From: Alphaproteobacteria bacterium
Lineage (GTDB): Bacteria; Pseudomonadota; Alphaproteobacteria; UBA7985
Direction of reading: 5' to 3'
Assembly (NCBI GenBank): GCA_965661545.1
Contig: CBFIEF010000008.1
Location: 38,231-102,230, forward strand
Length of the DNA: 64,000 nucleotides
Shown in pieces: positions 7,185-42,668 of this stretch (positions are counted from its first letter, which is position 1; the number at the start of each line of letters is the position of its first letter). The notes beneath the pieces were generated by a model that was not told the DNA's origin, did no database searches, and saw only the letters and a list, made by a program, of their open reading frames with translations. The translations under genes and the position numbers were made by a program.

Positions 7185-7195
7185 AGCCCAAGCAA

Positions 7196-13612: not shown

Positions 13613-14368
13613 TTAAGCCGTAGCTGGCGAGGGCGCGTTGGGGTCCGTGGCTTTTCGGGTCAAATCTGGCGCTGCGGCCTCCTCCACCACGGGTGCATCA
13701 GCCGCTCCGCCGCCGCCAGAAGGCAACGCTGCAGCGCTCTTCGCCGCTTTTTCCTGCTGCCAAAGCACGATAGGCCGAATGATGGCGTAAACGATGAACA
13801 GCAGCAGCGGCACAAACATCGCCCAACCGGGTAAGACGTCACCCAGAACAAACCGATCAAGCGCGTAAATGACGTAAATCAGGCCAAAGCTCAGCAGGAA
13901 CAACCGCTTGGTCTGCGCCTGCCACCGCTGCCACAGCGATACCCCGCCACCGGGCAGGAAAATCACCATCAGCATGAACACCAAACCCATGCCCAATTCC
14001 CAGCCCTCGCCGACAAACAGGTGCGGCAGGTGCGCGATGGGCCACTCGATGAAGCTTGGAAACGGCAGGGCGTCTTCAATGGCGTGGGTCAGCCGATCCA
14101 CGTCGATAGAGGAGATGATGTTGCCGAAGTACTTTACGATCAATGCCCCGATAAACGGCCCGACCACCGACCCCATACCACCGAGGATGTTCATGATGAC
14201 CACCTTGCCAGATTCCGTCCATTCCATCCGGTCTGGCGGCGCATTGGGGTCCATCGCAACAAACAGCGCACCCGCCAGCCCCGCAAACATGGCGGCGGTC
14301 GGTCCCAGTTGAGGAGCTTCGCGGCCTGTCGCAGCGCTTTTTAGGGCGCCGAGCCACCGCAGGCTTGT
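13613..14368 (-). pseudogene. 5'-truncated LivM-type permease remnant (C-terminal half only, with extra C-terminal TM/low-complexity tail)
   Basis: The frame is open only from 14368, with an in-frame TAA at 14371-14369. It contains only late LivM motifs (FAGLAGALF, ILGGMGSVVGPFIGA). No livH or solute-binding gene lies upstream; a kinase gene on the opposite strand is there instead. Confidence 0.6.
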
Positions 14369-15336
14369 TTAGCGATACCCTGCCCCAAGACGAGCGCGCG
14401 CTGTCCAATCTTGTGAGCCGGGTAGAGGCAGAATTGGCCTCGACCATCGGGTCCGCCTCGGCGCGCCTGCTGGTGAGCCGAACGGGTCAGGGCGATAACC
14501 TGTCGGCCCACGACGTTTACCGCATTCTTGATGAAGCCAGCCAGATCCGCGAATACAGCCGCGAGCTCGAAAACCGCACCACCCAACTCCGCGACGCAAA
14601 CACCAAATTGCAGGCTTTGGACACGATGAAGGATCTATTCCTGTCCCAAGTCAGCCACGAACTGCGCACGCCCATGACCTCCGTCCGCTCGTTCTCCGAA
14701 ATTCTGGCTGAAGAGAGCGATTTGCCTGAAGATCAGCGGCGGCGCTTTGCAGGGATCATCAGTCAGGAAACCGACCGCCTGACCCAATTGCTCGACAATA
14801 TTCTGCACCTGAACCGGTTGGAAAGTCAGGACGCAGAAACGGCGCAGCGGGCCAAGAAAGCCCTCGTCGGCAATGCGCCCGTGCTGCGCGGGTTAACCCT
14901 GCTACAGCCCTTAGCCGACCAGCACGGTGTTGCCTTAGCCATCGAGCTGGAACACAGCGGAGCGGAGATTTTTGGGGACTTTGATAGTCTGGAACAAGTG
15001 GTGATTAACCTGCTGTCCAACGCCATCAAATTCGCCGATGGGGAACGCCCCCAGTGTGAAGTCAAAACCTTCATTGAAAACGGTACGTTCTATATCGAGA
15101 TTTCCGATAACGGGCCGGGGCTCAGTCCTGATTTCCTGACGGCCCACAGCCCGCAAGCGGTGCATCGGGTCGATCATACGTCCCGCGGACGCTGGCTGGG
15201 CAACGGGTTGGGGCTGACGATTTCGCGGCGGATCCTGAGCACCCATGATGGCACCCTAATTATCGCCAACACTGGCAAGCCCGGAACCTGCATTCGAGCC
15301 GGTCTACCGCTTCTGCCAGCAGGAAAATCCAGCTAA
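14365..15336 (+). CDS. histidine kinase core (HisKA + HATPase_c), no TM or sensor domain, TTG start; possibly 5'-truncated
   Basis: H-box SHELRTPMTSVRSFSEIL, N-box LLSNAIKF, G-boxes DNGPGL and GNGLGLTISRRI. The first possible start in the frame is TTG 14365. Confidence 0.75.
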   Translation: MFSDTLPQDERALSNLVSRVEAELASTIGSASARLLVSRTGQGDNLSAHDVYRILDEASQIREYSRELENRTTQLRDANTKLQALDTMKDLFLSQVSHELRTPMTSVRSFSEILAEESDLPEDQRRRFAGIISQETDRLTQLLDNILHLNRLESQDAETAQRAKKALVGNAPVLRGLTLLQPLADQHGVALAIELEHSGAEIFGDFDSLEQVVINLLSNAIKFADGERPQCEVKTFIENGTFYIEISDNGPGLSPDFLTAHSPQAVHRVDHTSRGRWLGNGLGLTISRRILSTHDGTLIIANTGKPGTCIRAGLPLLPAGKSS

Positions 15337-15474: not shown

Positions 15475-17916
15475 GTGCGCCGAGCCACCACTTTCGACGT
15501 TTCCCCTGAGACCCTAAAGCACGATATCCTCGATACCCTGTACTATGTAATCGGCAAGGATCCTGAGCACGCTCAGCCCTTTGATTGGATGGCGGCTCTT
15601 ACCCGTCTCACACGACGCTATATCGCTCATTCGTGGATTGATGCCACGCAATCCACCTACGCCTTTGACCGCAAGCGGGTTTATTACCTGTCGATGGAGT
15701 TCATGATTGGACGCATCATCGAAGACGCTTTGCGCAATATTGGCCTGTATGATGCGGCTCAAGAAGCCCTTTCCAGCCATGGTGTCGATATGCAAGCGGT
15801 CATGTCCAGCGAGCCGGATCCGGCCTTGGGCAATGGCGGTTTGGGACGCTTAGCAGCGTGCTATATGGAGTCGATGGCAACACTGGGAATCAGCGGTTTT
15901 GGCTATGGAATCCGCTACGAAAGCGGACTTTTCAAGCAAAGCGTCGAAAAAGGGTGGCAGGTCGAGGAGCCGGATGACTGGACCAGCGGCGGCTCATTTT
16001 GGGAGTTTCCCCGCTCAGAAGTCCACTACGACATCGGCTTTATGGGCACCACACGCCAGCGCGATAAAGCCGTCACATGGACCCCCGGTGAGACCGTCGA
16101 GGCTATGGCCAACGACTTTCCCATTATCGGCTGGCAAGGCAAGTCGGCGGCGACGCTACGGCTGTGGTCTGCACGGTCCAAAGCCCCGTTGAACATGTCC
16201 GCGTTTGACCAGGGCGACTATTTGGGCGCGTACCGCCCGAAAATTATGGCCGAAGCGATATCACAGGTTCTCTACCCCAACGACAGCACCGAACAGGGGA
16301 AACGACTGCGGTTGAGTCAGGAGTATTTCTTCTCCGCCGCATCAATCAAAGACATCATCCGCCGCTATTTGAGCAATCACAGTGATCTGCGGAACTTGCC
16401 GGACAAGGTAACGATCCAGCTCAACGATACCCATCCGGCGATTGCCATTCCTGAATTTGTGCGGCTGCTGATGGATGAGCATGGTGTCAGTCTGGATGAC
16501 GCGTTCGAGCTTGCTCAGCAGACGTTCAACTACACCAACCACACCCTGCTGCCCGAAGCATTAGAGACGTGGCACGTAGGCTTGCTGGGCGATTTGCTAC
16601 CCCGGCACATGCAGCTGATCTACGAGATCAATGCACGGGTTCTGACCAAGCGGCGGGCGGATGCGGGCAACCGGGATCCTTACCTGTCTGATGTATCGCT
16701 GATTGAGGAACAAGGCGGCGGTTACGTGCGCATGGGCCATTTGGCGTTTATTGGCTCGCAGAAAACCAATGGCGTCTCGGCTTTGCATTCGGATTTGGTT
16801 GAAAGCCAGTTGTTCCGCAATCTTGGAACACACTTCCCCAACAAAATCACCAACGTCACCAATGGCGTCACGCCGCGACGCTGGCTGAACGGCTGTAACC
16901 CCGGTTTAGCCACGTTCGTCACCGAAGCGGTGGGCGATGGATGGCAGACGGATCTGGAGCGCTTGCGCGGCTTGGAAGCGCTGACCGACGACGCCAGCGC
17001 GCGCGAACGGTTTGCAGCGGTTAAGCGACAGAACAAAACCGCTCTGGCCGCTTACATCGCTGATGAAGTCGATATTCGGGTCTCCCCAGATGCCATGTTC
17101 GACAGTCAGATCAAGCGCATCCACGAATATAAGCGCCAGCTGCTCAACGTCCTGCACGCCATCGCGCTCTATCTGAACATCAAGGACCGCGGCGAAGCGC
17201 CAATCGCGCCAACGGTGAAGATTTTCTCGGGCAAGGCTGCGGCAAGCTACACCCGCGCCAAAGAGATCATCCGCCTCATGCACGGCGTCGCGGACAAGGT
17301 GAACAATGACCCAGCGGTGGGCGATGCGCTGAAAGTTGTGTTCTTGCCAAACTATCGCGTTACGACGGCAGAGCTGATTATTCCCGCGACCGACCTTTCC
17401 GAGCAGATTTCGACCGCCGGTATGGAAGCGAGCGGAACCGGGAACATGAAGTTCGCGCTGAACGGCGCGCTGACCATCGGTACGCTCGATGGGGCCAACG
17501 TGGAGATCATGGAGCACGTCGGCGCTGAGAACATTGAGATCTTTGGCCTGACGACCGAAGAGGTCCACGAACGGCGGCTGATGGGGCAGTGTCCGTCAGA
17601 CCTTTCTGACCCGCTGGACATGAAAGCGCGGGTGCTGGATGCCATTTCGTCAGGCACCTTTGGGCACGATGTCGCTGAGGCCTGTACCGGCATGATCAAC
17701 GATCTGACGCTGCATGATTATTTCTTGGTGATGGCTGATTTTGACGACTACTTGAGCGCCCAGACGCGCGTCGAGACGAGCTTTCAAGATCAGCAGGGTT
17801 GGACACGCCGGACCATGCTGAACACCGCACGCATGGGCTGGTTCAGCTCGGATCGCTCGGTTGCTGATTACGCCCGAACCATCTGGAACCTGCCGGAGGA
17901 CAATTTTGGTGTCTGA
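15475..17916 (+). CDS. glgP: glycogen phosphorylase
   Basis: 813 aa: EPDPALGNGGLGRLAAC, and the PLP-site region EASGTGNMKFALNGALTIGTLDGANVEI. Confidence 0.95.
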   Translation: MRRATTFDVSPETLKHDILDTLYYVIGKDPEHAQPFDWMAALTRLTRRYIAHSWIDATQSTYAFDRKRVYYLSMEFMIGRIIEDALRNIGLYDAAQEALSSHGVDMQAVMSSEPDPALGNGGLGRLAACYMESMATLGISGFGYGIRYESGLFKQSVEKGWQVEEPDDWTSGGSFWEFPRSEVHYDIGFMGTTRQRDKAVTWTPGETVEAMANDFPIIGWQGKSAATLRLWSARSKAPLNMSAFDQGDYLGAYRPKIMAEAISQVLYPNDSTEQGKRLRLSQEYFFSAASIKDIIRRYLSNHSDLRNLPDKVTIQLNDTHPAIAIPEFVRLLMDEHGVSLDDAFELAQQTFNYTNHTLLPEALETWHVGLLGDLLPRHMQLIYEINARVLTKRRADAGNRDPYLSDVSLIEEQGGGYVRMGHLAFIGSQKTNGVSALHSDLVESQLFRNLGTHFPNKITNVTNGVTPRRWLNGCNPGLATFVTEAVGDGWQTDLERLRGLEALTDDASARERFAAVKRQNKTALAAYIADEVDIRVSPDAMFDSQIKRIHEYKRQLLNVLHAIALYLNIKDRGEAPIAPTVKIFSGKAAASYTRAKEIIRLMHGVADKVNNDPAVGDALKVVFLPNYRVTTAELIIPATDLSEQISTAGMEASGTGNMKFALNGALTIGTLDGANVEIMEHVGAENIEIFGLTTEEVHERRLMGQCPSDLSDPLDMKARVLDAISSGTFGHDVAEACTGMINDLTLHDYFLVMADFDDYLSAQTRVETSFQDQQGWTRRTMLNTARMGWFSSDRSVADYARTIWNLPEDNFGV

Positions 17917-19795
17917 GCCGGTCCTCGCCGCCAACCCGCATCCGCTGTCGGAGTTTGATCTGCATCTGATCAACCACGGCAACCACGAACGCCTGTTCGA
18001 AGTCCTTGGCTGTCACCTGTTCGACCAAGGCGCACGGTTCGCGGTTTGGGCACCGAACGCGCAGGCGGTTTCGGTGATTGGCGACTTCAACGGCTGGGCC
18101 GTCGATGCGACGCCGCTGCGCAAGCACGACACCTGCGGCGTGTGGGAAGGCTTCGTCCCGGATTTGGGGGAAAACGAGCGTTACAAGTACGCCGTCACCG
18201 GCGCAAATGGTCAGGTGGTTGAAAAGGCGGATCCGCTTGGTTTCGCCTCAGAACTTCGCCCGAATACGGCTTCGGTCTCCACCACCGTTGTCCGCGATTT
18301 GCCCCAACCCGACTACGAGCGTCGCATGGCCTATGACCAGCCCATGTCGATCTATGAAGTCCACCTTGGTTCTTGGCGCAAGCACGAGGGCTGGCGGTTT
18401 TATTCCTACGATGATCTGGCCGAGCAGTTGGTCGATTACGTAGCGGACCTTGGCTTTACCCATATCGAAGTCATGCCCCTGCATGAATTCCCATTCGATG
18501 GGTCTTGGGGCTATCAGCCGACGGGGCTTTTCTGTGCCACGAGCCGGTTTGGCAATGCCGGCGGATTGGCGCATTTGGTGCGCCGGGCGCATGAGCGGGG
18601 CTTGGGGGTTTTGATGGATTGGGTGCCGGGACACTTCCCCAAGGACGCCCACGGTTTGGCCCAATTCGACGGCGGCGCGCTGTATGAATACGCAGATCCA
18701 AAAAAGGGCGAACACCCGGACTGGGGCACGCTGGTCTATGACTATGGCCGGTGGGAAGTGGTCAACTTCCTCGAAGCCAACGCGGCTTTCTGGCTGGAGA
18801 AAATCGGCATGGACGGCCTGCGGGTCGATGCAGTCGCGTCGATGCTGTATCTGGATTACAGCCGCGACGACGGACAGTGGGTGCCGAACATTCATGGTGG
18901 CAACGAGAACCTCGAAACCACAGAATTCCTCAAGCGCCTGAACGCCAATCTCTACCGCCGCTATCCTCATGCTGCGGTTATTGCAGAAGAATCAACGGCG
19001 TGGCCGGGGGTTTCTCGGCCAGTAGATCAGGGCGGTTTGGGCTTTGGTTACAAGTGGAACATGGGCTGGATGAACGATACGCTGGCTTACATGGGCCGCG
19101 ATCCCATCCACCGACAATTCCATCACCGTGAAATCACCTTTGGCTTTGACTACGCCTTTGACGAGAACTTCATTCTGCCGCTGAGCCACGATGAAGTGGT
19201 GCATGGCAAAGGCTCCCTGCTGGGCCGCATGCCGGGCGATCCATGGCAGCGTTTTGCAAACCTCCGCGCCTATTATGGGTTCATGTGGGGGCATCCGGGG
19301 AAGAAGCTGCTGTTCATGGGCTGTGAGTTTGGCCAAGCGAGTGAATGGGACCACGAAAGCGAATTGCCGTGGGATGAAGCCGCTCAAGAACCCAACCGAC
19401 AGGTCAGCGCGCTGGTCCGCGAACTTAACGCCCTGCACTGCTCGGAACCCGCTCTGCACCAGCAAGACTGCCAGCCCGGCGGGCTGCAATGGATCGAAGG
19501 CGGAGACTCGGAGAACTCGGTGGTTGCCTTTATCCGGTGGGATCGCGCAGGCGCGGCACCGGTGGCCGTCATTACAAACTTTACACCCACGGTCCAAGAC
19601 TATCGCGTCGGCATGCCGCGCGCAGGAACGTGGACCTGCATTCTGAATACGGACAGCCGTGCCTATGGCGGGTCGGGCGTCTCCGAAGCAGCAGGCAGCA
19701 TGACCACAGAGGCCAGCGCGTGGCATGGGCAAGAGCAGTCTCTCGCCCTGAAACTGCCACCGCTCGCGACCCTTTATCTGCGTTTGGAGTCCTAA
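17909..19795 (+). CDS. glgB: 1,4-alpha-glucan branching enzyme
   Basis: GH13 motifs [41 protein letters not shown] 17909 ([20 protein letters not shown]) overlaps the glgP stop by 8 nt. ATG 17861 is the alternative start. Confidence 0.9.
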
Positions 19796-19833
19796 GGCGC
19801 GCAACAACGACTTTTCGGGGAGAAACGGAAATT

Positions 19834-21090
19834 ATGTCAGATCGAGTTACCATTCCAGAACTCACCAGAGCCACCTATGCGATGGTGCTGGCCGGTGGAC
19901 GCGGCAGTCGCCTCAAAGAGCTCACCAACGAGCGCGCAAAACCGGCGGTGCATTTTGGGGCTAAGAACCGGATCATTGACTTCGTACTTTCGAACGCCTG
20001 GAACAGCGGCATCCGAAAAATGGGCATTGCGACCCAGTACAAAGCCCACTCGCTCATCCGCCATTGTCAGCGCGGCTGGAACTTTGCGCGGGCTGAGCGG
20101 AACGAGTACTTCGACATTCTCCCCGCCTCGCAGCGGGTTGATGATGCTTGGTACAAAGGCACGGCTGATGCGGTGCTGCAGAACCTTGATATTATCGACG
20201 GCTACAAGCCGAAATATCTGCTGGTTCTGGCTGGAGATCATATCTACAAAATGGACTATGGCATCATGTTGCGGCAACACGTGGAGTCCGGTGCGGAAGT
20301 CACGGTTGGCTGTATCGATGTTCCGCTGGAGCAAGCTTCAGCCTTTGGCGTGATGACCGCAGACCCGTCGAACCGGATCACAGCCTTTACCGAAAAGCCG
20401 AAAAAGCCAGCGCCGATGGAGGGCAAACCAGACCGCGCTTTGGCGTCCATGGGCATCTATGTCTTCAACTACGACTTCATCAGCGACTTGCTGCGCAAGG
20501 ACGCCGGACAAGACGGCTCCACCCACGACTTTGGTACTGACATCATCCCCGAGTTGGTCAAACAAGGCGGCGCCTACTCCCATTGGTTCAACGAAAGTTG
20601 CGTGCGGGCCGAGGGCGAGAAGGAAGCATACTGGCGCGACGTGGGAACGCTCGACAGCTTCTGGGAAGCGAACATCGACCTGTGCACCCTCTCCCCCGCA
20701 CTCGACATCTACGACCGGTCCTGGCCGATCTGGACCTATGCGGAACTCAACGCGCCGGCCAAGTTCGTCCACGCAGAAGAAGGACGCACAGGGCGCGCGG
20801 TTGGCTCGCTGGTCGCAGGCGGCACCATCGTTTCGGGGGGCTTGGTCGAGCACTCCATGTTGTTCGCCAACGTGAAGGTCAACTCCTTCACCCACCTGCG
20901 CGATTGCATCGTGTTCCCTGATGCTGACATTGGCCGAGGCGCACGGCTGCATCGGGCGATCGTGGAAAAGGAAGTGCGGATTCCGCCAAATCTGGTCGTC
21001 GGTGAAGATGCAGCACTAGACGCGCAACGCTTCCGCCGAACGGAAAGCGGGATTACGCTGATTACAAAAGACATGATTGCGAAACTCTAA
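19834..21090 (+). CDS. glgC: glucose-1-phosphate adenylyltransferase
   Basis: [31 protein letters not shown]..., [10 protein letters not shown], and a C-terminal LbH domain. ATG 19834 is preceded by GGGGAG. Confidence 0.95.
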
Positions 21091-21093
21091 GCG

Positions 21094-22530
21094 ATGACAA
21101 AGCCCCTGCGCGTTCTATCGGTTGCTTCGGAAATGTATCCCTTTGTGAAAACAGGGGGATTGGCGGACGTTGTTGGTGCGCTGCCGGCGGCCTTGCGGGC
21201 GCAGGGTGTGGAGGTTACGACGCTCATCCCCGGTTATCGCTCTGTCCTGCCCAAGACAAGCGCGCGCGGAGACCTGCTCACGCTTGCGCCGGAAAGCAGC
21301 GCCTCGGGGCTGGTTCTCGCGGCAAATATTCCGGCGGCGTTTGACCGGGCGGGTGGGCCTTATCTGGATGAGCGTGGACAGGATTTTGCCGACAATCTGG
21401 CCCGGTTCAGTGCGTTCTCCGCTCGTGCCGCAGAAATCGCAGCAGGTCTATACGACGACCTGCCAGCCTTTGACCTCGTACACGCCCACGACTGGCAAGC
21501 GGCGGCGGTGATCGGCCATTTGCATCACAGACTGAAGGGACGGCCACTGCCCACCGTTTTCACCATCCACAACCTCGCTTTTCAAGGCCGGTTTGGGGGG
21601 GAGTGTTTTCAGGATGTTGGCTTGCCTGCGGCGTACTTCGACCGGCATTGGTTCGAGTTTTACGGTGATGTCAGCCTGCTGAAATCCGCTGTGCTGCGCG
21701 CGACCAAAGTAACCACCGTGAGCGAAACCTATGCCGCTGAGATCTGCGGTCCGGCGCAGGGCTTTGGCTTGAATGAACTGCTGGCGGGGCGCGGGGGCGA
21801 TTTGCTGGGGTTGGTAAACGGACTGGATACCACCGTTTGGAACCCCGCCACCGACAAGGCCCTGCCCCTAGCCTACGATAACGCGACCTTCGCGGCTGGA
21901 AAAGCGGCGGCAAAGGCGGCGTTGCAGGGGGAATACGGCCTGCAAGCCAGCGCTGAAAAACCGCTGTTCGGGCTGGTTTCTCGTCTGTCGGATCAAAAGG
22001 GCATCGACTTGATCGCTGAGCAAATCGACGGCTTGGTGTTTCGTGGGGCGCAAATGGCAATTCTGGGCAGTGGCGACCCGGCACTCGCGGCTGCGCTGGC
22101 GGCGAAAGCGAAGCAGCACCCGACGCAAGTGGCCTTCATCGATGGCTACAACGAAGCCTTCTCGCACCTGCTCCACGCTGCCTCTGACTTATTGCTGGTG
22201 CCATCACGGTTTGAGCCGTGCGGCTTGACGCAACTCAGCGCACAACGCTATGGCGCCGTGCCCGTCGTCTCCCCGGTCGGAGGCTTAGTCGATACGGTCA
22301 TTGACGCAAACACCGCCGCGCAGCGTGCGGGCGTCGGAACCGGGATCATCATGCGGGACGTTAGTTCGACGGGGCTGGGGCAAGCGCTGGATCGGGCGCT
22401 GAAGCTGTATCAGGAAACCCCCGAGGCCATGCGCCAAACGATCACGCGCGGCATGGGCGCGGACGTGGGATGGGATGCATCGGCGGCGGGGTATGCCGCG
22501 CTGTATCACAGCCTGACCTCAGATGTCTGA
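21094..22530 (+). CDS. glgA: glycogen synthase
   Basis: MTKPLRVLSVASEMYPFVKTGGLADVVGALP (KTGGL motif); GT5 family; 478 aa. Confidence 0.95.
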   Translation: MTKPLRVLSVASEMYPFVKTGGLADVVGALPAALRAQGVEVTTLIPGYRSVLPKTSARGDLLTLAPESSASGLVLAANIPAAFDRAGGPYLDERGQDFADNLARFSAFSARAAEIAAGLYDDLPAFDLVHAHDWQAAAVIGHLHHRLKGRPLPTVFTIHNLAFQGRFGGECFQDVGLPAAYFDRHWFEFYGDVSLLKSAVLRATKVTTVSETYAAEICGPAQGFGLNELLAGRGGDLLGLVNGLDTTVWNPATDKALPLAYDNATFAAGKAAAKAALQGEYGLQASAEKPLFGLVSRLSDQKGIDLIAEQIDGLVFRGAQMAILGSGDPALAAALAAKAKQHPTQVAFIDGYNEAFSHLLHAASDLLLVPSRFEPCGLTQLSAQRYGAVPVVSPVGGLVDTVIDANTAAQRAGVGTGIIMRDVSSTGLGQALDRALKLYQETPEAMRQTITRGMGADVGWDASAAGYAALYHSLTSDV

Positions 22531-24544
22531 AGCTCCAAAACCTGGCCTACACCGCCATAAAGATGGCCTCTCCGCGACGCTGTTTTCAGCGCATGCCGAA
22601 GCCGTCACCCTGTGCCTGTTCGCCGATGACCTGGAAACAGAACACGCGCGCGTGCCGCTGGTCCGTGGCACAGAGGGATGGTGGAGCGCGACGGTTACGA
22701 ATGCGCCGGAAAGCTTTGCTTACGGCTACCGAGTGGACGGCCCCTATGAGCCCGCTGCCGGTCATCGGTTCAATGCCAACAAACTGCTGGCCGATCCCTA
22801 CGCACGGGTGCTCAAGGGCACACTGATCAATGATCCTGCGCTTTTTGGCTTTACAGACTTTGAGACCGGAGACGGATTTTCAGCGCTTGATAGCGCGGCC
22901 CTCGTCCCCAAGGGCTGGTTCGAAGGCAAAGGCGAAGGCGATGGCTTTGCGACCCCGCGGGCGTGGACGCGCCCCAACACGCGCTGGCGGGACACAGTGA
23001 TTTATGAAGCCCACCTGAAAGGCTTTTCTAAGCAACACCCCACGGTATCAATCAGTGCTCAGGGGACATTCCAAGCCTACGCCGGGCCAGACAATCCCTT
23101 GGTGGCCTATTTGGCGGATTTGGGTGTGACGGCGGCTGAGTTTTTGCCGCTCATGGCCTTTTACGACGAGCGCCATCTTGGTCCCTTGGGCCTGACAAAT
23201 TACTGGGGCTACAACCCCTTGCACTTCTTCGTGCCAACGGACCGCTACAACGCCGATGGCGACCCCGTCGCAGCCGTTCAGGCCATGGTCGAAGGCTTCC
23301 ATGCAGCCGGCCTCGAAGTGCTGCACGACGTTGTGTTCAACCATACCGCTGAAAGCGACCATTTGGGGCCAACGCTGAGCTTTCGCGGGCTGGATAACGC
23401 CAGCTACTACCACTTAGAACCCGGCAATCCCGCCCGTTACTTCAACCCCACTGGCACGGGAAACGCGCTCAATGGCGGTCATCCGGCGGTGCAGCGTTTG
23501 GTGCTGGATGCGCTGGCCTATTGGCATCACGCGCTGGGGTTCGACGGGTTCCGCTTTGACCTCGCCTCAACACTTGCCCGCGACGCACAAGGGAAAATGC
23601 AAAGTCCGCCAAGCAGTCTCATCGGGCTGATCGACACAGACCCTCGGCTTGCTGGTGCAAAGTTGATCGCGGAGCCGTGGGACATTGGCGAAGACGGCTA
23701 TCAACTGGGGCAGTTTGACGGGCGTTGGACGGAGTGGAACGACCGCTTCCGCGATGGTGCCCGCGCGCTGTGGCATCCGGCGCATCGATCAGGCGCTTTG
23801 CAGCGGTTTGCGGACCATTTACTCGGGTCGGCCACCAGCTTTGACCGGCCTCTGCAATCCATCAACTTCATCGCCGCCCACGATGGCTTCACGCTGGCGG
23901 ATATGGTCGCCTTTGACCACAAACACAACGAGGCCAATGGCGAGCAAAACCGCGATGGTCACGGACATAACCTGTCATGGAACCATGGGGTTGAAGGGCC
24001 GACGGTCTCGCCGTCAATCCTGGCGGAACGCGCCCGCACACAGCGCGCTTTGCTGCTGACGCTGCTGCTGTCCCAAGGGGTGCCAATGCTGGCCATGGGG
24101 GATGAGCAAGGCCACAGCCAAGACGGTAACAACAACGCCTATTGTCAGGATGGGCCGCTGTCGTGGCTGGATTGGTCGGATAGCGATGCCGGATTAGCAG
24201 ACTTTGTTCGGGACGCCCTCGCGCTGGTGCGTCGCCTGCCGTCGCTGCGCCAAGCGCGGCATCTTCACCGGGCCGAGCACGTATCATGGTGGCGGACCGA
24301 TGCGCTGCAAATGCGCGCACCAGACTGGGAAAACGACGATTTGTGCGCGCTGGTGATGCACTTGGCTCCGGTAACAGACACAGACCCAGCCGTAGCGATT
24401 GCCCTGAATATCGGGGATGCTGATTGCCCGTTGCAGCTTCCAAACGGTCCAGACTGGTCTTTGGCGCTTAGCTCCGCCGATGGGGGGAGCGTTGAGCAGT
24501 TGCCGCGTCGTTCGATTGCTGTTTTCCAAAGCGCGCAGGACTGA
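22523..24544 (+). CDS. glgX: glycogen debranching enzyme
   Basis: GH13_11-like: YWGYNP, DVVFNHTAE, GFRFDLAS, AEPWD, FIAAHDGFTL. It overlaps the glgA stop by 8 nt. Confidence 0.9.
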   Translation: MSEAPKPGLHRHKDGLSATLFSAHAEAVTLCLFADDLETEHARVPLVRGTEGWWSATVTNAPESFAYGYRVDGPYEPAAGHRFNANKLLADPYARVLKGTLINDPALFGFTDFETGDGFSALDSAALVPKGWFEGKGEGDGFATPRAWTRPNTRWRDTVIYEAHLKGFSKQHPTVSISAQGTFQAYAGPDNPLVAYLADLGVTAAEFLPLMAFYDERHLGPLGLTNYWGYNPLHFFVPTDRYNADGDPVAAVQAMVEGFHAAGLEVLHDVVFNHTAESDHLGPTLSFRGLDNASYYHLEPGNPARYFNPTGTGNALNGGHPAVQRLVLDALAYWHHALGFDGFRFDLASTLARDAQGKMQSPPSSLIGLIDTDPRLAGAKLIAEPWDIGEDGYQLGQFDGRWTEWNDRFRDGARALWHPAHRSGALQRFADHLLGSATSFDRPLQSINFIAAHDGFTLADMVAFDHKHNEANGEQNRDGHGHNLSWNHGVEGPTVSPSILAERARTQRALLLTLLLSQGVPMLAMGDEQGHSQDGNNNAYCQDGPLSWLDWSDSDAGLADFVRDALALVRRLPSLRQARHLHRAEHVSWWRTDALQMRAPDWENDDLCALVMHLAPVTDTDPAVAIALNIGDADCPLQLPNGPDWSLALSSADGGSVEQLPRRSIAVFQSAQD

Positions 24545-25424: not shown

Positions 25425-27464
25425 CTATTTGTTACGGATTTTGCCGGTTACCAGATCGAGTACCGCCGCCCCGGCGTCAATCACGTTGGTGCCGGGGCCA
25501 AAGATGGCAGCGACGCCGGCGGCTTTCAGGATGTCGTAATCCTGCTCCGGGATCACCCCGCCACAAATGACAATCATATCTTCCCGTCCCCCGGCGCGCA
25601 GGGCGTCAATCAGTGCGGGAAGCAAGGTCTTATGCCCCGCCGCCAAGGACGAGACACCCACCACTTGCGCCTTGGCCGCGATGGCTTGCTCGGCGGCCTC
25701 TTCAGGGGTCTGAAACAGCGGCGACGTTTGAACGTCGTATCCGAAATCAAGGAAGGCGGAGGCAATCACCCGACTGCCTCGGTCGTGACCGTCTTGCCCG
25801 AGCTTAGCCATATACAGGCGCGGGGCGCTGTCCATGGCAGTGATGCGAGCGATGAGGGTTTGCACTTGCGGATCATCGGCCAACTCAGCGCCGTACACGC
25901 CTCGCACCAAAGAAGGGTTGCCGTCATACTCGGCAAACACGGCACGCAGACGATCACTGACCTCACCCACGGTGGCCCGCACGCGCATGGCCTCAACGGT
26001 GGCTGCGAGCAAATTGCCGTCGCTGCGCGCCGCCTCTTCCAAGGCCGCTAATGCGGCTTCAACGCGGTCTGTGGGACGGGTCGCGCGCAAGGATTGCAAC
26101 TGCGCCACTTGGGCCTCGCGGACGGCGTTATTGTCGATGTCGAGCACCTCGATGGGGTCACTCTCATCACGCTGGTATTTGTTGACGCCGACGATCACCT
26201 GACGGCCACTGTCGATGGCGGCTTGTCGCTGGATGGCGGCAGTTTCGATTTGCGCTTTGGGCCAGCCGGTTTCGATGGCTGCGGTCATACCGCCGCGGGC
26301 TTCGACTTCTTGGATCAGCGCCCAAGCCTGCTCGGCCATGTCGGCGGTCATCTTCTCCACGTAGTACGACCCAGCGAGCGGATCCACGACGTCGGTGACA
26401 CCGGTTTCGTGGGCGAGGATCAGCTGCGTGTTTCGGGCGATGCGGGAGCTGAATTCTGTGGGCAGCGCAATGGCTTCATCAAAGCTGTTGGTGTGCAGGG
26501 ACTGAGTACCGCCCAAGACCGCACTCATCGCCTCGAATGCCGTGCGGACGACGTTGTTGTAGGGCTCTTGCTCCTGCAAGGAGACACCGGATGTCTGGCA
26601 GTGTGTCCGCAGCATCATGGATTTGGGGTTCTGGGGCTCAAACTCTGCCATGATCCGCGACCACAGCAAGCGCGCGGCGCGCAGCTTGGCGGCTTCGGCA
26701 AAGAAATCCATGCCGATCGCAAAGAAGAACGACAAGCGCGGGGCAAAAGCGTCCACGTCCAAGCCTTTGGCCAATGCTGCCCGCACGTACTCCCGCCCAT
26801 CAGCGAGGGTAAAGGCCAACTCCTGCACCAGCGAGGCGCCGGCTTCTTGCATGTGATAGCCGGAAATGGAGATCGAGTTGAACTTGGGCATATTCTGCGC
26901 GGTGTATTCGATGATGTCGGCAACGATGCGCATGCTCGGCTGTGGGGGGTAGATGTAGGTGTTGCGGACCATGAACTCCTTGAGAATATCATTCTGGATC
27001 GTTCCGGCCAGCGCCGCTTGGCTCGCGCCCTGCTCCTCACCCGCAACGATATAGGCGGCGAGAACCGGCAGCACGGCGCCGTTCATGGTCATGGACACAG
27101 AGACATCTTGCAGCGATATGCCGTCGAACAGGCGGCGCATGTCCTCAACACTGTCGATGGCAACCCCCGCCTTGCCCACGTCCCCGCGTACGCGCTCGTG
27201 GTCGCTGTCATAGCCGCGGTGGGTGGCGAGATCGAAGGCGACAGACAAACCCTTTTGCCCACCGGCTAAAGCTTGCCGATAAAAGGCGTTGCTTTCTTCG
27301 GCGGTGGAAAAGCCGGCGTATTGGCGAATGGTCCAAGACCGCTGCGTGTACATGCTGGCATAGGGGCCGCGCACAAACGGCGCTTCGCCTGGCGCGCTGT
27401 CCAGATGATCCAAGCCGTCCAGATCTTGGGCCGTATAAATGGTTTTGGTGGTATCGCTCGTCAT
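25425..27464 (-). CDS. scpA: methylmalonyl-CoA mutase (B12-dependent, single-polypeptide type)
   Basis: [58 protein letters not shown]. The C-terminal B12-binding domain carries GQDGHDRG. Confidence 0.88.
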
Positions 27465-27632
27465 TGTGCGCCCCGGTTTCGTTTGTCTGACAACATAAGG
27501 CGTTCTCCACTTTCTTGGCTAACACGGCAGGCAACCCTCGCACAGGGGGGAATCAGAGCGCTGGTCGCAGTCGTGCAAGAAATTGCCGCCTGGTCCCTTG
27601 CGCACGGTACGTTCTTGCGGCAGAACGACGCG

Positions 27633-27850
27633 GACCTTTGGTGTCTCATTACAGTCCAAGACTGGAGACTTAATAGGGAACTCGGTGCGGCGTACCCATT
27701 AGGGACCAAAACCGAGGCTGTCCCCGCAACTGTAAGCGGATAGCGCAGCTCCACCAGGCCACTGAAGCCCTCGCCCCGTGTGAGTGCCTTGGGAAGGCCG
27801 GAGCAACAAGCGCCATGACCCGCGAGCCAGAAGACCTGCCAAGGCATTGT
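27633..27850 (+). promoter_or_regulatory. cobalamin (B12) riboswitch
   Basis: Conserved core read directly: AATAGGGAA 27672-27680, GGTGCGG 27684-27690, CCCCGCAACTGTAAGCGG 27722-27739, GCCACTG 27758-27764, GGGAAGGCCGG 27791-27801, B12 box AGCCAGAAGACCTGCC 27825-27840. The outer boundaries are approximate. Confidence 0.85.
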
Positions 27851-27890
27851 GAAACCATCTTTGAGGGCGGGTGACCCTCTGGGAGTGACC

Positions 27891-28043
27891 ATGACGATTG
27901 TCAATTCTGACCGTGCAACCCGCGCGGCTTCGCGTTCCTTTACTTTAGACGTCACACGACCGTCGCAAGCCATGCTGCTGATCAGCGCTGGCGGGGCTTC
28001 GGTGCTGTGTTGGCTGGGCCTTATTGCGCTGATCCTGCTCTAG
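27891..28043 (+). CDS. small single-TM protein / leader ORF downstream of the B12 riboswitch
   Basis: SD GGGAG (27881-27885) lies 5 nt before the ATG. The 50-aa product MTIVNSDRATRAASRSFTLDVTRPSQAMLLISAGGASVLCWLGLIALILL has one TM. Its stop is 3 nt before the ATPase start. Confidence 0.5.
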   Translation: MTIVNSDRATRAASRSFTLDVTRPSQAMLLISAGGASVLCWLGLIALILL

Positions 28044-28046
28044 GGC

Positions 28047-28805
28047 ATGCTACACGCAATAGACCTTGCCGTCGGCTACCGTGCCGAAACGGTGGCGCGT
28101 GACCTGACGTTTGATGTACAGCCCGGAGAAATCCTCGCGGTCATCGGCCATAACGGCTCTGGCAAATCAACGTTGGTGAAAACCATTCTTGGGATTGAAA
28201 CCCCGCGGGCTGGCGCGCTGGCTTGGACACAGGGCCGTGCGCCCCAGCCGATTGGCTATCTGGGCCAACTCACGGAATTCGACCGGCGTTTCCCGATGCG
28301 TGTCTGCGATCTGGTGGAAACCGGCGGGTGGAGCAAGCTGGGTTTCTTTGATGCTGCTGGCACTCGAGCGCGGGTTCGGGCGAGCGAGGCGCTTGACCGT
28401 GTTGGCCTGAACGATATCGCGACCTTGCCCCTGCATAAACTCTCCGCCGGGCAACTCCAACGCGCACTGTTCGCGCGAACGATGGTGCAAGACGCACAGG
28501 TGATCATCCTCGACGAACCCTTTGCCGCCGTGGACCAGAACACCGAAGCGGACCTGATGCAGCACGTACTGACGTGGGTCGGCGAAGGCCGTTCGGTCAT
28601 CATGGTGCTGCACAACCTCTCCGCTGTCCTCCATCACTGCGAACGCACGCTACTGCTGGGCCGAGGCTCGGGCCGCTTTGGCCCTTCACGCGCGGTGTTG
28701 AACGCGGGTGCGCTGGTTGAGATGGGCTATTTGGCAGCCGATCAAGCGCGCTGGTTGATGGGATCACTCGATGGCTCGGCTGAGGACGGGCGCGACGATG
28801 CTTGA
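28047..28805 (+). CDS. metal ABC transporter ATP-binding protein (ZnuC/MntA/TroB type)
   Basis: GHNGSGKSTL, LSAGQLQR, IILDEP; 252 aa. Confidence 0.88.
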   Translation: MLHAIDLAVGYRAETVARDLTFDVQPGEILAVIGHNGSGKSTLVKTILGIETPRAGALAWTQGRAPQPIGYLGQLTEFDRRFPMRVCDLVETGGWSKLGFFDAAGTRARVRASEALDRVGLNDIATLPLHKLSAGQLQRALFARTMVQDAQVIILDEPFAAVDQNTEADLMQHVLTWVGEGRSVIMVLHNLSAVLHHCERTLLLGRGSGRFGPSRAVLNAGALVEMGYLAADQARWLMGSLDGSAEDGRDDA

Positions 28806-29634
28806 GTTCTTCGAATTTGACTTCATGCGGAAGGCGATCGTGGCGGTGATTGTGCTCTCGCTCGGCATGGCGCCGGTCGGCTGCTTTCTGGTGCTGCGCC
28901 GGCTGTCGTTGGCCGGTGAAGCCATGAGCCACGCGGCCATTCCAGGCATTGTCGTGGCCTACTCGATTGCCGGGCTGTCTGTCCTGTCTATGACACTGGG
29001 CGGGCTGATTGCCGGGCTGAGTGTGGCGCTTCTATCGACGGTGTTGGCGCGGGTTACCTTGCTGCGTGAAGACGCAAACATGGCGACGCTGTATTTGCTG
29101 GCGCTGGCGGGGGGTATCTTTTTGCTGTCGATCAGAGGAACGGCGGTGAACCTTGAATCCTTCCTGTTTGGCAACATTTTGGGGCTGCGCGCCTCCACGC
29201 TGATCTTGATCGGCGCGACGACGACGGTGACGCTGCTGGTGATGGCGCTGATCCTCCGTCCGCTGATCCTGCAAACTGTCGATCCGGTTTTTGCCCGCTC
29301 CCAATCCAAGCATACGTGGCTGATCAGCGCGGTCTTTATGGTCCTGGTCGTGCTCAACCTGATTGCTGGTTTTCGGGCGCTTGGGACGTTGATGGCTGTG
29401 GGCCTGATGATCGTGCCAGCGACGGCAGCGCGTTACTGGGTGAACGCTGTAACCCCCATGCTTGGGCTGGCGTTCTGCTTTGGGGCTGGCAGCGGCCTGC
29501 TGGGCTTGGCCCTGTCCTATTGGCTGTCAAACGTCCCCTCCGGGCCGAGCATCGTACTGGTCTGCGGGGTGGTGTTCTTGGTCAGCCTGCTTTTTGGCCG
29601 CAATGGCCTCAACCTGCTCGCGCGGCGAGCCTAA
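28798..29634 (+). CDS. metal ABC transporter permease (ABC-3 family, ZnuB/MntB/TroC type)
   Basis: MLEFFEFDFMRKAIVAVIVLSLGMAPVGCFLVLRRLSLAGEAMSHA... is the typical ABC-3 N-terminus. ATG 28798 overlaps the ATPase stop by 8 nt (ATGCTTGA). Confidence 0.88.
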   Translation: MLEFFEFDFMRKAIVAVIVLSLGMAPVGCFLVLRRLSLAGEAMSHAAIPGIVVAYSIAGLSVLSMTLGGLIAGLSVALLSTVLARVTLLREDANMATLYLLALAGGIFLLSIRGTAVNLESFLFGNILGLRASTLILIGATTTVTLLVMALILRPLILQTVDPVFARSQSKHTWLISAVFMVLVVLNLIAGFRALGTLMAVGLMIVPATAARYWVNAVTPMLGLAFCFGAGSGLLGLALSYWLSNVPSGPSIVLVCGVVFLVSLLFGRNGLNLLARRA

Positions 29635-29656
29635 TCACGCCGGAGTTCCTCTGATC

Positions 29657-30526
29657 ATGCGCCTCATTCTTTTCCCGCTTATCACGCTCTTCTTGAACCT
29701 GCCAACGCTCGCCGCTGCGGAAACGATCAAAGCGACTGCGAGCTTCTCCATTCTTGGGGACATCGTGGAACGTGTTGGGGGTGACTTGGTAGACGTTTCC
29801 AGCATCGTCGGCCCCGACAGCGATGCCCATACCTACAGCCCCACTGTTGGAGATGCGCGCGCCGTTGCCAAGGCCGATATCGTGTTCATTAACGGTCTGG
29901 GCTTTGAAGGCTGGGTTGGCGATCTGATCGCGGCCTCGGGCAACGATGCGCCCGTGATCGCCGTCACACGCGACATCGAACCGCTGCTGGTCGAAGGCGA
30001 AGCGGACCCCCACGCTTGGAACGACTTGAGCAACGGTGCGACCTACGCCCGAGCCGTAATGGAAGGCTTGAGCGCGCTGGATCCAGACAACGCCGCAACC
30101 TACGCCGCCAACCAACAAGCCTTTGCCAATGATATCGCCGCGCTGCTGTCCTCCGCCCAAGAACGCTTTGCCGCCCTGCCTGAGAACCAGCGTAGTGTGG
30201 TCACCGCGCACGACGCCTTTGGCTACTTCGAAGCGCAATTCGGCCTGCGCTTCCTGGCGCCGGTTGGCATGAACACCGAAGCGGAGCCGTCTGCACGGGA
30301 ACTAGCAGGGCTGATCCGGCAGATTAAAGACGAAGGCATCGGCGGTCTGTTTGTCGAAAATATCACAAACCCGGATCTGGTCGCGCAAATCGCCAAGGAA
30401 ACAGGCCTCGAATTTGGCGGGCGACTGTACTCGGACGCGCTATCCGCTCAAGGCGGCCCGGCGACGTCCTACCTCGCCATGATGGAACACAACATCGCCA
30501 CCCTGCTCAGCACACTCAGCCGCTAA
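29657..30526 (+). CDS. periplasmic metal-binding protein (cluster A-I, ZnuA/TroA/MntC type) lacking a His-rich loop
   Basis: Signal peptide MRLILFPLITLFLNLPTLAAA; FSILGDIVERVGG; ligand-region motifs DAHTYSP, DPHAW, AHDAFGYF; 289 aa. Confidence 0.85.
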   Translation: MRLILFPLITLFLNLPTLAAAETIKATASFSILGDIVERVGGDLVDVSSIVGPDSDAHTYSPTVGDARAVAKADIVFINGLGFEGWVGDLIAASGNDAPVIAVTRDIEPLLVEGEADPHAWNDLSNGATYARAVMEGLSALDPDNAATYAANQQAFANDIAALLSSAQERFAALPENQRSVVTAHDAFGYFEAQFGLRFLAPVGMNTEAEPSARELAGLIRQIKDEGIGGLFVENITNPDLVAQIAKETGLEFGGRLYSDALSAQGGPATSYLAMMEHNIATLLSTLSR

Positions 30527-30984
30527 TTCGGGCACGAAGAGGGGGGGCGTACTTCACTTGCACTTGTAAGCAATTCGATAGCAAGGCGTGAAGAAATAGC
30601 CCCCTAACCCATTGGTTCCCATCATAAATCTCGCCTAACGCACCGCAAACAGTGCTTTCGCTTGAAATAAGGCGACATTTTCAAGGGTAATTCTGCAACA
30701 GGCTGTGGAAAAGTCGCATGAACCTTGGTTTTTAATACCCCTAATTCAATAAGATCATCTTATCTAATGATGCCAATACACGAATTTGGCGAAGGCGATG
30801 CAATTTATCGCTGAATGGAGCGCGATCCGACCTGAGCCTGAAGTTTTCTTCTTTGGATTCGACGCTCCAGACAAAATGAAAAGTGGGTGTCTCCGGGAGT
30901 GTGTCTCTCTCCTCCCTTCCTCCCCCAAGGCACTGTCGGGGGCACCACTTTTATCAACAAGATTCCTCCCTAGACGCTGTATCC

Positions 30985-31020
30985 GAGGAGCCCAAGAAAC
31001 GAACTTGGGCTCCTCTTTTT
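30985..31020 (+). terminator. orphan rho-independent terminator (candidate sRNA 3' end)
   Basis: GAGGAGCCCAAG-AAACGAA-CTTGGGCTCCTC forms a 12-bp perfect stem followed by TTTTT. It lies about 460 nt downstream of the nearest + strand CDS. Confidence 0.75.
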
Positions 31021-31090
31021 CGTGTACCCATCAGCACGAGGTGGCGCCCCGCTGTTTCAACCCGCTTTGCGGCTTTCAACACCGCAACGC

Positions 31091-31135
31091 GCAAGCAGGT
31101 CGGCGACGGTGTCGCCGGTCGGCTGCCGCCTCCGT
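31091..31135. repeat. solo copy of repeat module 1 (GGCGAC-GGT-GTCGCC hairpin plus GGTCGGCTGCCGCCTCCG)
   Basis: Near-identical to 31236-31283, to 53594-53632, and to the reverse complement of 8010-8055. Confidence 0.8.
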
Positions 31136-31235
31136 TTTATGAGTCGGTGGTGGCTGCTGTAAACGTATACCGAGCTTGAGGTTGATGATGCCTTGAGGCC
31201 AAGACGGCCCTGCGTGGGTTGGGTAATTTATGGCT

Positions 31236-31283
31236 TCACGCGAGCAAGTCGGCGACGGTGTCGCCGGTCGGCTGCCGCCTCCG
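31236..31283. repeat. second solo copy of repeat module 1, direct repeat of 31091-31135
   Basis: CTTCACGCGAGCAAGTCGGCGACGGTGTCGCCGGTCGGCTGCCGCCTCCG matches the reverse complement of 8010-8059 almost base for base. Confidence 0.8.
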
Positions 31284-31365
31284 CTTCACACAAAAACCCC
31301 CGGCCCACCAAAGGTGCGCGAGGGGTTGCTGTAACTGGCATTTCTGCGTGGTTGGCCGCAGAGCC

Positions 31366-41498: not shown

Positions 41499-42668
41499 TT
41501 AGAACGTAATCGTCGCCGTCAAGCCAAACTCTTGGCCGTCGGAGGTCTTGAAACCTCGTCCCATGCCAATTGCCGTGGTGTTGTCCAAGGCCAAGGTCGT
41601 GACGTTGTTGTACTGCTTGAAGTAGCCACCGATGGTGACGTTCTTCGTCGCTTGAAACTCTGCCCCCACGCTCAAAGCCGTGCTGACTTCAGCAGAGGTT
41701 GGGAAAATCCCGCCAATGCCGGCGTCAAAGTAGGCTGGGCTGGTTGGAATGGTTGAGCCGCTGAGACACTCAGCTTCAAGGCTGGTACAGCCCCATTCCG
41801 CGCTGGTTACAGCCCGGTCCATGTCGATCGACAGCTTGATCGCATCGATTGCGGTGTAAGACACACCCAAGGACGCGAACTGACGCTTTACATCAGTTTC
41901 ATTATCGACAGACGCAAGCATCCAGTTGGAAACACGTTCCTGACCGATCGACACGCCAAGTTCAATATCACCGAAGTCCACACCACCCATTGCCGTTAGG
42001 CCGTAGTAGTCATCCGCCAGCAACTCGAGCACTGGATCCTGAATAGGGCTGGTAACGCCCTCAACACCGACGGTGAAGTCATACCCTGCGAAACCGACGT
42101 TGTAGTGCAACTGGCCCGAGAAACCCCGGTGGTCCAAATCGTAAGCAACTTCAGCATTCAAATCGCCAAAGTTCAGCGAGTAGCCCACTTCATCGCCAAC
42201 GAAGTCGCCGGAAAATTCTGTAGAGAAGAGTTTCGTCGAAATGCCAGAACCGCCCGCTGCGACGCTGTCTGCGTAGCTGTACAGGTTAGACCGAGCACCG
42301 CCCTCGCGGTAGAACAGTGTTCCCAAATCGCTCTGGATACCGAGCATCCCGCGCTGGAATGCGATCGCGCTACCTGTTGCGTCGAGCGCCATGTCCATTT
42401 GACCCAACCAAGTGAGGCCAGCGACATCGACGGATGCGGTTGTGTTAAGCGCACCGCTCAGGGCGCGGCTAGAACCAACAACGGCATCAGTTGCACCCAA
42501 GCCGCCTGAGATCAGCGGATCACCGGCTGTGTCTAAGGTATTAAAGATAGGGGAAGCGTCTCTATCGCTCCAGTTGAGGGTAACATGTCCACCCAACATG
42601 ACGTCCACATCGGCCAAGGCAACGCCTGGCACGAGGAGGCAAGAGGCGGCAAATAGCACCTTTCGCAT
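41499..42668 (-). CDS. outer-membrane beta-barrel porin
   Basis: Signal peptide MRKVLFAASCLLVPGVALA, alternating beta-strand pattern rich in G/S/D/Y, and a C-terminal ...GLTATITF ending in Phe. Confidence 0.75.
   Translation of the reverse strand: MRKVLFAASCLLVPGVALADVDVMLGGHVTLNWSDRDASPIFNTLDTAGDPLISGGLGATDAVVGSSRALSGALNTTASVDVAGLTWLGQMDMALDATGSAIAFQRGMLGIQSDLGTLFYREGGARSNLYSYADSVAAGGSGISTKLFSTEFSGDFVGDEVGYSLNFGDLNAEVAYDLDHRGFSGQLHYNVGFAGYDFTVGVEGVTSPIQDPVLELLADDYYGLTAMGGVDFGDIELGVSIGQERVSNWMLASVDNETDVKRQFASLGVSYTAIDAIKLSIDMDRAVTSAEWGCTSLEAECLSGSTIPTSPAYFDAGIGGIFPTSAEVSTALSVGAEFQATKNVTIGGYFKQYNNVTTLALDNTTAIGMGRGFKTSDGQEFGLTATITF

Follow-up and report, generated by a model that had tools for sequence, protein, structure and literature searches.

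The stretch of DNA analysed here, referred to below as the window, is 64,000 nucleotides (nt) long and comes from an alphaproteobacterium of the UBA7985 lineage (contig CBFIEF010000008.1). It carries a predicted cobalamin (vitamin B12) riboswitch in front of an operon of four genes, which encode a small membrane protein and the ATPase, permease and periplasmic binding protein of an ATP-binding cassette (ABC) metal importer. The gene of a methylmalonyl-CoA mutase is transcribed divergently from this operon (Table 1). The RNA element was recognized by the Rfam model RF00174 (cobalamin riboswitch), which was matched over its full length (model positions 1-189) at 104.4 bits (E = 4.5e-25, cmscan), the gathering score being 31.5 bits. 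This was the sole match above threshold in the whole window with Rfam 15. The core elements of the family, namely the B12 box AGCCAGAAGACCTGCC, GGGAA and GCCACTG, are all there. The motifs and the hairpin behind them had been quoted in the initial annotation, made from the letters alone, and proved correct to the base, and its call of a B12 riboswitch is carried by the RF00174 score. As judged from these features, the RNA upstream of the importer is a true cobalamin riboswitch, for which cobalamin binding is predicted.

Table 1. Features of the riboswitch-importer locus; positions refer to the window unless a locus number is given.
Feature	Position	Strand	Remarks
Methylmalonyl-CoA mutase, single-chain, with B12-binding domain	25425-27464	-	PF01642 and PF02310; NF006944, 1153 bits for a cutoff of 876
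Cobalamin riboswitch aptamer (predicted)	27622-27857	+	RF00174; B12 box at 27825-27840, L5 loop CCCCGC within 27722-27729
Aptamer motif AATAGGGAA	27672-27680	+	read from the sequence
Aptamer motif GGTGCGG	27684-27690	+	read from the sequence
Aptamer motif CCCCGCAACTGTAAGCGG	27722-27739	+	read from the sequence
Aptamer motif GCCACTG	27758-27764	+	read from the sequence
B12 box AGCCAGAAGACCTGCC	27825-27840	+	read from the sequence
Expression platform	27858-27890	+	pyrimidine tract, P13 hairpin and Shine-Dalgarno sequence, read from the sequence
Pyrimidine tract	27858-27862	+	5' of the P13 hairpin
P13 hairpin GAGGG-CGGGUGA-CCCUC	27863-27879	+	loop L13 complementary to L5
Shine-Dalgarno sequence GGGAG	27881-27885	+	one base past the hairpin; start codon ATG at 27891
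Small membrane protein, 50 aa	27891-28043	+	no Pfam or NCBIfam family
ABC ATPase, 252 aa	28047-28805	+	PF00005, 94 bits
ABC-3 permease, 278 aa	28798-29634	+	PF00950, 174 bits; Glu41 and His45 at the translocation coordination site
Cluster A-I periplasmic metal-binding protein, 289 aa, signal peptide	29657-30526	+	PF01297, 270 bits
Operon regions of the nested subclade	L046 81-4946; L051 2431-7988; L068 2-3472; L112 8316-12975		

Behind the riboswitch, a Znu/Mnt-type importer had been proposed, and Pfam and NCBIfam searches bore this out: an ABC-3 permease, a ZnuA-family binding protein and an ABC ATPase stand in one operon, which is the composition of the cluster A-I type. The genes are closely packed, with a gap of 3 nt between the small open reading frame (ORF) and the ATPase gene and an overlap of 8 nt between the ATPase and permease genes, both as first read, followed by a gap of 22 nt before the binding-protein gene. 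The binding protein contains the motifs DAHTY, DPHAW, AHDAFGYF and LYSDAL and no His-rich loop, in agreement with the DAHTYSP, DPHAW and AHDAFGYF ligand regions noted beforehand. The best NCBIfam models were those of the zinc importer AztABC, with 185 bits for a cutoff of 220 (AztA), 204 for 280 (AztB) and 265 for 350 (AztC), and none of the three window proteins reached these equivalog cutoffs (NF040873, NF040871, NF040870). Matches to cobalt or corrinoid transporters were weak, generic ones of the ABC ATPase, far below cutoff (e.g., cbiO, 81 bits for 212).

The conservation of this arrangement was examined in relatives collected from one genome per GTDB species and from contigs encoding individual database homologues, and in further ones from JGI metagenomes searched with an alignment of 27 clade members. 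Loci whose binding protein is at least 52% identical to that of the window are called the clade, and those at or below 50% identity the relatives or outgroup. Loci were scanned with Rfam at gathering thresholds and with an nhmmer profile of the aptamers. RF00174 was found upstream on the same strand, about 2 kb from the binding-protein gene, in 22 of the 26 clade loci with enough upstream DNA, and in the RF00174 scan upstream in none of the 38 loci with binding proteins at or below 50% identity. The riboswitch-bearing loci are the window (with its near-identical copies L001 and L024-L027), L002, L004, L005, L006, L007, L008, L014, L028, L029, L031, L034, L037, L038, L042, L044, L047, L049, L054, L099, L113 and L114. 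Their identified hosts are Geminicoccus, Rhodospirillaceae, Filomicrobium, Pelagibius and the cultured strain Tritonibacter litoralis, the others being metagenome-assembled genomes or metagenomes. The riboswitch is absent from the clade loci L030, L115, L051 and L112, and the sequence of L046 breaks off 80 nt before its first gene. Fisher's exact test of riboswitch against clade membership gave p = 2e-13, a value that ignores shared ancestry. More weight attaches to a coarse neighbour-joining tree, in which the loci with the riboswitch fall in a single monophyletic clade, sister to AztC and its enterobacterial homologues. The pairing first seen in the window therefore extends to its orthologous loci; it is conserved and is no chance association. 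That the element would be a chance neighbour or a decayed remnant in front of an ordinary zinc importer is extremely improbable: only automatic "zinc/manganese" annotations speak for it, whereas the untruncated aptamers of the clade are full-length, score 76-126 bits and keep the same position and strand in 22 loci from several orders, and their expression platform covaries. The clade is widespread in marine and soil Alphaproteobacteria, its best 120 database relatives all being at least 56% identical and mostly metagenomic, and it is automatically annotated throughout as "zinc/manganese ABC transporter."

Other arrangements of riboswitches and transporters were seen during this survey. In L054, a short contig of low GC content (45%), the riboswitch (650-848) lies directly before a stand-alone binding-protein gene (923-1825), with no ATPase or permease gene between them. 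In L072, which belongs to the Zur-type group, a full-length RF00174 match (1558-1756, +, 67.7 bits) is located downstream of the gene of a binding protein of 44% identity (599-1495), and the contig ends before the gene that this element would control. Unrelated riboswitches were found in outgroup flanks, for fluoride (RF01734, L075 975-1036, -) and thiamine pyrophosphate (RF00059, L061 2881-2998, -). In L115, a system of the BtuFCD/CbtJKL class (ABC_tran, Peripla_BP_2 and FecCD domains; 11621-14422) lies 0.7 kb downstream of the riboswitch-less clade operon, in a region rich in transposase and integrase genes.

The expression platforms were then compared sequence by sequence; a MAFFT alignment of the platforms had misaligned the hairpins of two groups. 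The P13 stem covaries between loci (GAGGG/CCCUC, AGGG/CCCU, GGGG/CCCC, CCAGG/CCUGG), and its loop keeps CGGG(G)U. In the window, the loop CGGGUG is complementary to CCCCGC of L5, and the two loops change together elsewhere: an L5 of CCCCCGC pairs with a loop of GCGGGG in L008, L038, L044, L049 and L054, and an L5 of UACCCGC with a loop of GCGGGU(G/A) in L028, L037, L047 and L114. In the minimum-free-energy fold of the window platform, CUUU of the pyrimidine tract is paired with GGAG of the Shine-Dalgarno (SD) sequence, and in L004, UUUCC of the tract can pair with GGAGA of the SD sequence. This comparative evidence points to an aptamer-coupled platform with an L5-L13 kissing loop and occlusion of the ribosome-binding site. 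Such a kissing loop is established in solved cobalamin riboswitches (PMC7689651). Fold-energy Z-scores were uninformative (0.06 for the platform, -0.45 for the whole leader), and covariation was therefore relied on instead. No terminator-like site was detected by a terminator scan between the aptamer and the 50-aa ORF, nor any U-run 3' of the P13 hairpin. Transcription attenuation was rejected on the absence of a hairpin with a U-run in this interval, and translational control is therefore favoured.

In the mechanism we propose, plentiful cobalamin would be bound by the aptamer, whose L5 would then kiss L13 of the downstream hairpin. This contact would lock the hairpin together with the adjoining pairing between anti-SD and SD sequences, keeping ribosomes off the start of the small ORF. 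Repression would spread from there to the three coupled genes via translational coupling, perhaps also mRNA decay, and when B12 is scarce the operon would be translated. The covariation of the platform is observed in the sequences themselves, and from it, together with the anatomy of the leader, we infer the response to the ligand: bound B12 would repress the translation of the first ORF. In the Tritonibacter-like group (L008, around 4112-4231, and equivalent positions in L038 and L044), the SD sequence behind the hairpin leads into an extra short ORF, starting with MFDLRTVDLF... or MFDARKPLIY..., which precedes or overlaps the small membrane-protein ORF, the latter having a GGAGG of its own. 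This extra ORF may encode a leader peptide or serve to relay translational coupling.

The first gene of the operon deserves attention of its own. The 50-aa ORF reported in the initial annotation is indeed present and is also called by independent gene callers; to see it as a mere leader does not hold, since it encodes a small membrane protein conserved across the whole transporter family. In its product, a polar N-terminal half is followed by a single C-terminal transmembrane helix, which contains a conserved Trp and right after which the chain ends. No Pfam or NCBIfam family was matched. A small ORF lies between leader and ATPase gene in every clade locus, including the riboswitch-less ones, with conserved position and architecture and a length of 45-57 aa in most of them, and most Zur-type relatives likewise have a small ORF of homologous appearance before the ATPase gene. 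Between related pairs, substitutions at codon positions 1/2/3 number 104/85/185, which is a coding pattern. The protein is probably a small membrane (fourth) subunit of this importer family. Among Zur-type relatives, the small one-helix protein has a His-rich N-terminus in L096 (4177-4365; MPHDHSHDSGHHHGHAHSHG), L105 (1650-1838) and L103 (4050-4214), and it may be an overlooked subunit of zinc importers of the Azt/Zni type. A conserved, unannotated membrane subunit would matter for the whole Azt/Zni importer family, whichever metal is moved.

Concerning the transported metal, "cobalt or some other B12-linked metal" had been suggested at the outset. This is what the comparative data allow, cobalt being favoured but not proven. 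With moderate confidence, we propose that the operon encodes a cobalt importer that arose from Azt/Zni-type zinc importers and whose translation is blocked by B12 binding. On the grounds of comparative genomics, the imported metal would be Co(II), destined for the corrin ring. The clade would descend from Zur-controlled zinc importers of the Azt/Zni type, exchanging the Zur box for a B12 riboswitch; it would have lost the His-rich segments of zinc capture, and the metal-coordinating Asp of its permease would have become Glu. Cobalt importers are the standard metal transporters of B12 regulons (PMC7689651, PMC3766115). In L047, the riboswitch-led operon is directly followed by cobS, cobT, cobU, cobC, cbiB, cobD and cobQ, of which five (cobT, cobU, cbiB, cobD and cobQ) score above their NCBIfam cutoffs. 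In L046 and L051, a DUF1636 gene stands in front of the operon; in Phaeobacter inhibens, this family is the riboswitch-led first gene of a cobalamin operon. Among the ORFs scanned in the rest of the window, there were no cob genes and no second metal transporter.

The proposed change of regulator comes from comparison with the relatives. Of 21 outgroup loci, 10 have a Zur box immediately before the operon that matches AATGTTATAATATAACATT at 14-17 of 19 positions, and in nine of these at least 15 positions agree. Several other outgroup loci have, as judged by eye, the end of a Fur-family (zur-like) gene apparently just upstream. By contrast, no match of at least 13 of 19 positions was found near the operon in 19 clade loci. 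His-rich insertions precede DPHAW in many relatives of 43-50% identity (e.g., EDEHGHGHDHGHSHG in L061) and are absent from the clade, which also lacks as a whole the His-containing loop found at this place in AztC. More generally, His-rich tracts occur in the binding proteins, small proteins and COG0523 GTPases of the outgroup and are missing from those of the clade. Directly downstream, the relatives of 43-50% identity encode a COG0523 GTPase that has a long His stretch, and in most cases a WD40 protein comes next. They share in this the architecture of znuABC with COG0523 subfamily 5, WD40 and Zur sites, an arrangement linked to zinc (Haas et al., 2009; PMC2770081). Riboswitch-bearing loci have neither a COG0523 nor a WD40 gene where downstream sequence is available.

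The permease departs from the zinc relatives as well. Aligned with PsaC of the Streptococcus pneumoniae Mn importer PsaBCA (7KYO; 260 residues, E = 3e-30), the window permease places Glu41 on Asp46 and His45 on His50. In the PsaC channel, this Asp/His pair forms a coordination site that import requires; its conservation among 52 characterised importers of Mn and Zn is described as high (PMC8346216). The clade keeps the His and replaces the Asp: GEAM[AS]H is found in 38 of 38 clade permeases and GDAxxH in 36 of 36 outgroup permeases. The Asp-to-Glu change leaves the metal unnamed, but it shows that the clade would not simply be a zinc importer with a different promoter.

The binding protein is more conservative. 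Its ligands His58, His119, His185 and Asp260 align with the ligand motifs of AztC and are invariant in 27 clade members, and the closest solved structures are ZniA of Klebsiella pneumoniae (8SVC) and AztC (5KZJ/5W56), both zinc proteins (PMC12183173). The His at the third ligand is the classical zinc marker, Mn and Fe binding proteins having Glu there (PMC12183173). This residue bears on another possibility, that the operon imports Mn or Fe and supplies a B12-independent ribonucleotide reductase (NrdEF/NrdAB) at low B12, which we consider very improbable. B12 riboswitches do control nrd genes in some Alphaproteobacteria (nrdHIAB in RegPrecise), the cluster A-I family includes Mn and Fe importers, and MntC is the second-best NCBIfam match of the binding protein (227 bits). 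However, besides its third ligand, the MntC and MntA matches are far below their cutoffs, and all nearest relatives are of the Zur type rather than the Mur or MntR type. As to PsaBCA, its regulation also differs from that found here. Only eight positions of the binding protein are clade-specific (e.g., Asn122 for Gln); they were tried as a metal discriminator and rejected, none of them being an added ligand.

The absence of an added ligand is one of several points that weigh against cobalt. The binding site is the same His3Asp as in zinc-specific AztC, with a zinc-like first coordination shell, and a site of this kind would be expected, from the Irving-Williams order, to bind Zn in preference to Co. 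ZniA, which also lacks the His loop, imports zinc. Genes for cobalamin synthesis (cob) adjoin only 1 of about 22 riboswitch loci, and L030 and L115 have neither riboswitch nor Zur box. Finally, a subclade nested in the clade (L046, L048, L051, L053, L068, L112) has no riboswitch in those loci whose upstream region can be seen, and it keeps COG0523 and WD40, a gene pair associated with zinc limitation (COG0523 subfamily 5, PMC2770081). Its GTPases are without the long His stretch.

Part of this evidence fits a transporter of low selectivity under B12 control, moving Co, Zn and perhaps Ni, with cobalt as one of several substrates. The unchanged first shell of the binding protein would agree with it, as would L030, L112 and L115, where riboswitch and Zur box are both lacking. 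The strict conservation across the clade of the Glu/His site of the permease and of the binding-protein ligands rather suggests one tuned substrate, and we regard low selectivity as improbable.

The same evidence is compatible with zinc import under B12 control, the main rival of the cobalt reading, where Zn(II) uptake would be raised at low B12, for instance to load MetE, the B12-independent methionine synthase and an abundant zinc enzyme. The riboswitch would then be a direct wire from B12 status to the zinc economy, metallating the B12-independent, zinc-dependent back-up enzymes. In line with this, all closest characterised homologues, which have the identical His3Asp site in the case of AztC, import zinc (PMC12183173), the tree has AztC as the sister of the clade, the nested subclade keeps its zinc-associated gene pair (PMC2770081), and B12 riboswitches control B12-independent isozymes such as MetE (PMC2770081, PMC3766115). 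Zinc nevertheless appears unlikely: the 19 clade loci have no Zur box, unlike their relatives, the His-rich tracts for zinc capture are lost throughout the clade, the permease departs from characterised Zn importers by its Glu, and no metE adjoins any locus, whereas cob genes adjoin L047. Control by B12 would also be redundant, as zinc demand is normally sensed through Zur.

The COG0523 gene of the nested subclade was also considered as a "CobW" and hence as a sign of cobalt; this was rejected as ambiguous, the same COG0523 and WD40 pair following the operon in Zur-boxed relatives. NCBIfam scores do not separate CobW, YjiA and ZigA. Likewise, a Zur-like box in L051 was discarded, its match at 14 of 19 positions lying within a background of about 1 per 22 kb; it corresponds to the palindrome ATGATA-N5-TATCAT upstream of the DUF1636 gene. 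In this contig of 9666 nt, positions 309-1789 are repeated at 6951-8431, so that a unit of about 6.64 kb is present about 1.45 times, consistent with either a small circular molecule or an artefact of assembly. By eye, the unit also holds an apparent tRNA fragment. The WD40 protein of the nested subclade shows no obvious signal peptide, and in L046 and L068 an ORF of 102-119 aa without a family lies between the binding-protein and GTPase genes.

Compared with known zinc systems, the operon has its three core proteins in common with AztABC(D) of Paracoccus denitrificans and ZniCBA of Klebsiella pneumoniae and Rhizobium leguminosarum, together with the His-His-His-Asp/Glu binding site, and the gene order is that of the Zur-type relatives examined. 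It differs from these Zur-controlled importers in lacking the Zur box and the AztC His loop, in the Glu of its permease and in its control by a B12 riboswitch. Compared with known cobalt systems, the resemblance is one of regulation. CbtJKL of Sinorhizobium meliloti is also a binding-protein-dependent ABC importer behind a cobalamin riboswitch, with the same proposed role in cobalt uptake, but CbtJ is BtuF-like (FecCD/Peripla_BP_2 class) and not homologous to the ZnuA and ABC-3 proteins of the window (PMC7689651). CbiMNQO, CbtAB, CbtC, NiCoT/HoxN and HupE share the logic by which a B12 riboswitch represses metal uptake in replete cells (PMC3766115, PMC7689651); these are unrelated energy-coupling factor or secondary transporters, none with a cluster A-I binding protein. 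In Pfam and NCBIfam searches, no homology to the known cobalt importers of B12 regulons was detected, permease and binding protein falling in the Zn/Mn families of cluster A-I.

As importers known behind B12 riboswitches, the initial annotation had listed the BtuB/BtuFCD, CbiMNQO, CbtAB, NiCoT and CbtJKL types, with no Znu-type system among them. This agrees with published surveys and with the RegPrecise tables, which cover Rhodobacterales genomes: no ZnuA/ABC-3 system appears there under a cobalamin riboswitch. In the full-text literature, no paper was found that links a ZnuA-, TroA- or AztC-type system to a B12 riboswitch; a brief earlier mention is possible, many papers in subscription journals lying outside this search. 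What is described here is a known scheme, a B12 riboswitch over a metal importer, on a class of transporters for which no earlier tie to it was found and which shows signs of retuning.

Cobalt is picomolar in much of the ocean and limits the production of B12, a vitamin needed by many algae. Most of what is catalogued as bacterial cobalt importers still comes from riboswitch-based prediction, and under its zinc/manganese auto-annotation the clade escapes surveys of cobalt and B12 metabolism. Should the clade import cobalt, it would add a new transporter class to the B12 regulon and would constitute a natural experiment in the retuning of a zinc importer, combining the Asp-to-Glu change, the loss of His-rich segments and the swap of a protein regulator for an RNA. 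If it imports zinc instead, the riboswitch would tie B12 to zinc in an unexpected way. It would be the first case in which a riboswitch couples a vitamin to a metal other than that of its own cofactor, with a bearing on B12-Zn-Co co-limitation in the ocean.

The divergent mutase had been put forward as a physiological rationale for the riboswitch. The gene is B12-dependent and divergently transcribed as described, yet the general rationale does not stand: the adjacency is limited to the Geminicoccus-like lineage of the window (window, L001, L004, L006, L014, L024-L027, L031), and in the other riboswitch loci with examined flanks, the neighbouring genes are unrelated and do not include the mutase. 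A general functional link was rejected for this reason, and the adjacency is plausibly a local convenience that is no evidence of function. In L006 (1701-3724), L031 (5598-7623) and L026 (5745-7779), the mutase gene is broken into two frames, probably through assembly frameshifts rather than as pseudogenes.

On the other side of the operon, the binding-protein gene of the window is followed by an 840-nt noncoding stretch (30527-31365) with a dip in GC content to 43%. It contains a 48-nt direct repeat (31090-31137 and 31239-31286, 94% identical) that includes the palindrome GGCGAC..GTCGCC, and the equivalent gap varies from about 770 to 1220 nt among the near-identical L024, L025 and L027. Elsewhere in the window, four long ORFs have no Pfam family at E <= 1e-5: 54621-57122 (+, 833 aa), 43087-44544 (+, 485 aa), 41499-42668 (-, 389 aa) and 50434-51255 (-, 273 aa). 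Two tandem genes resembling acetyl/propionyl-CoA synthetases (ACAS_N and AMP-binding domains; 8088-10046 and 10120-12063, -) lie 15 kb from the mutase gene, and a glycogen cluster consisting of glgP, glgB, glgC, glgA and glgX occupies positions 15475-24544.

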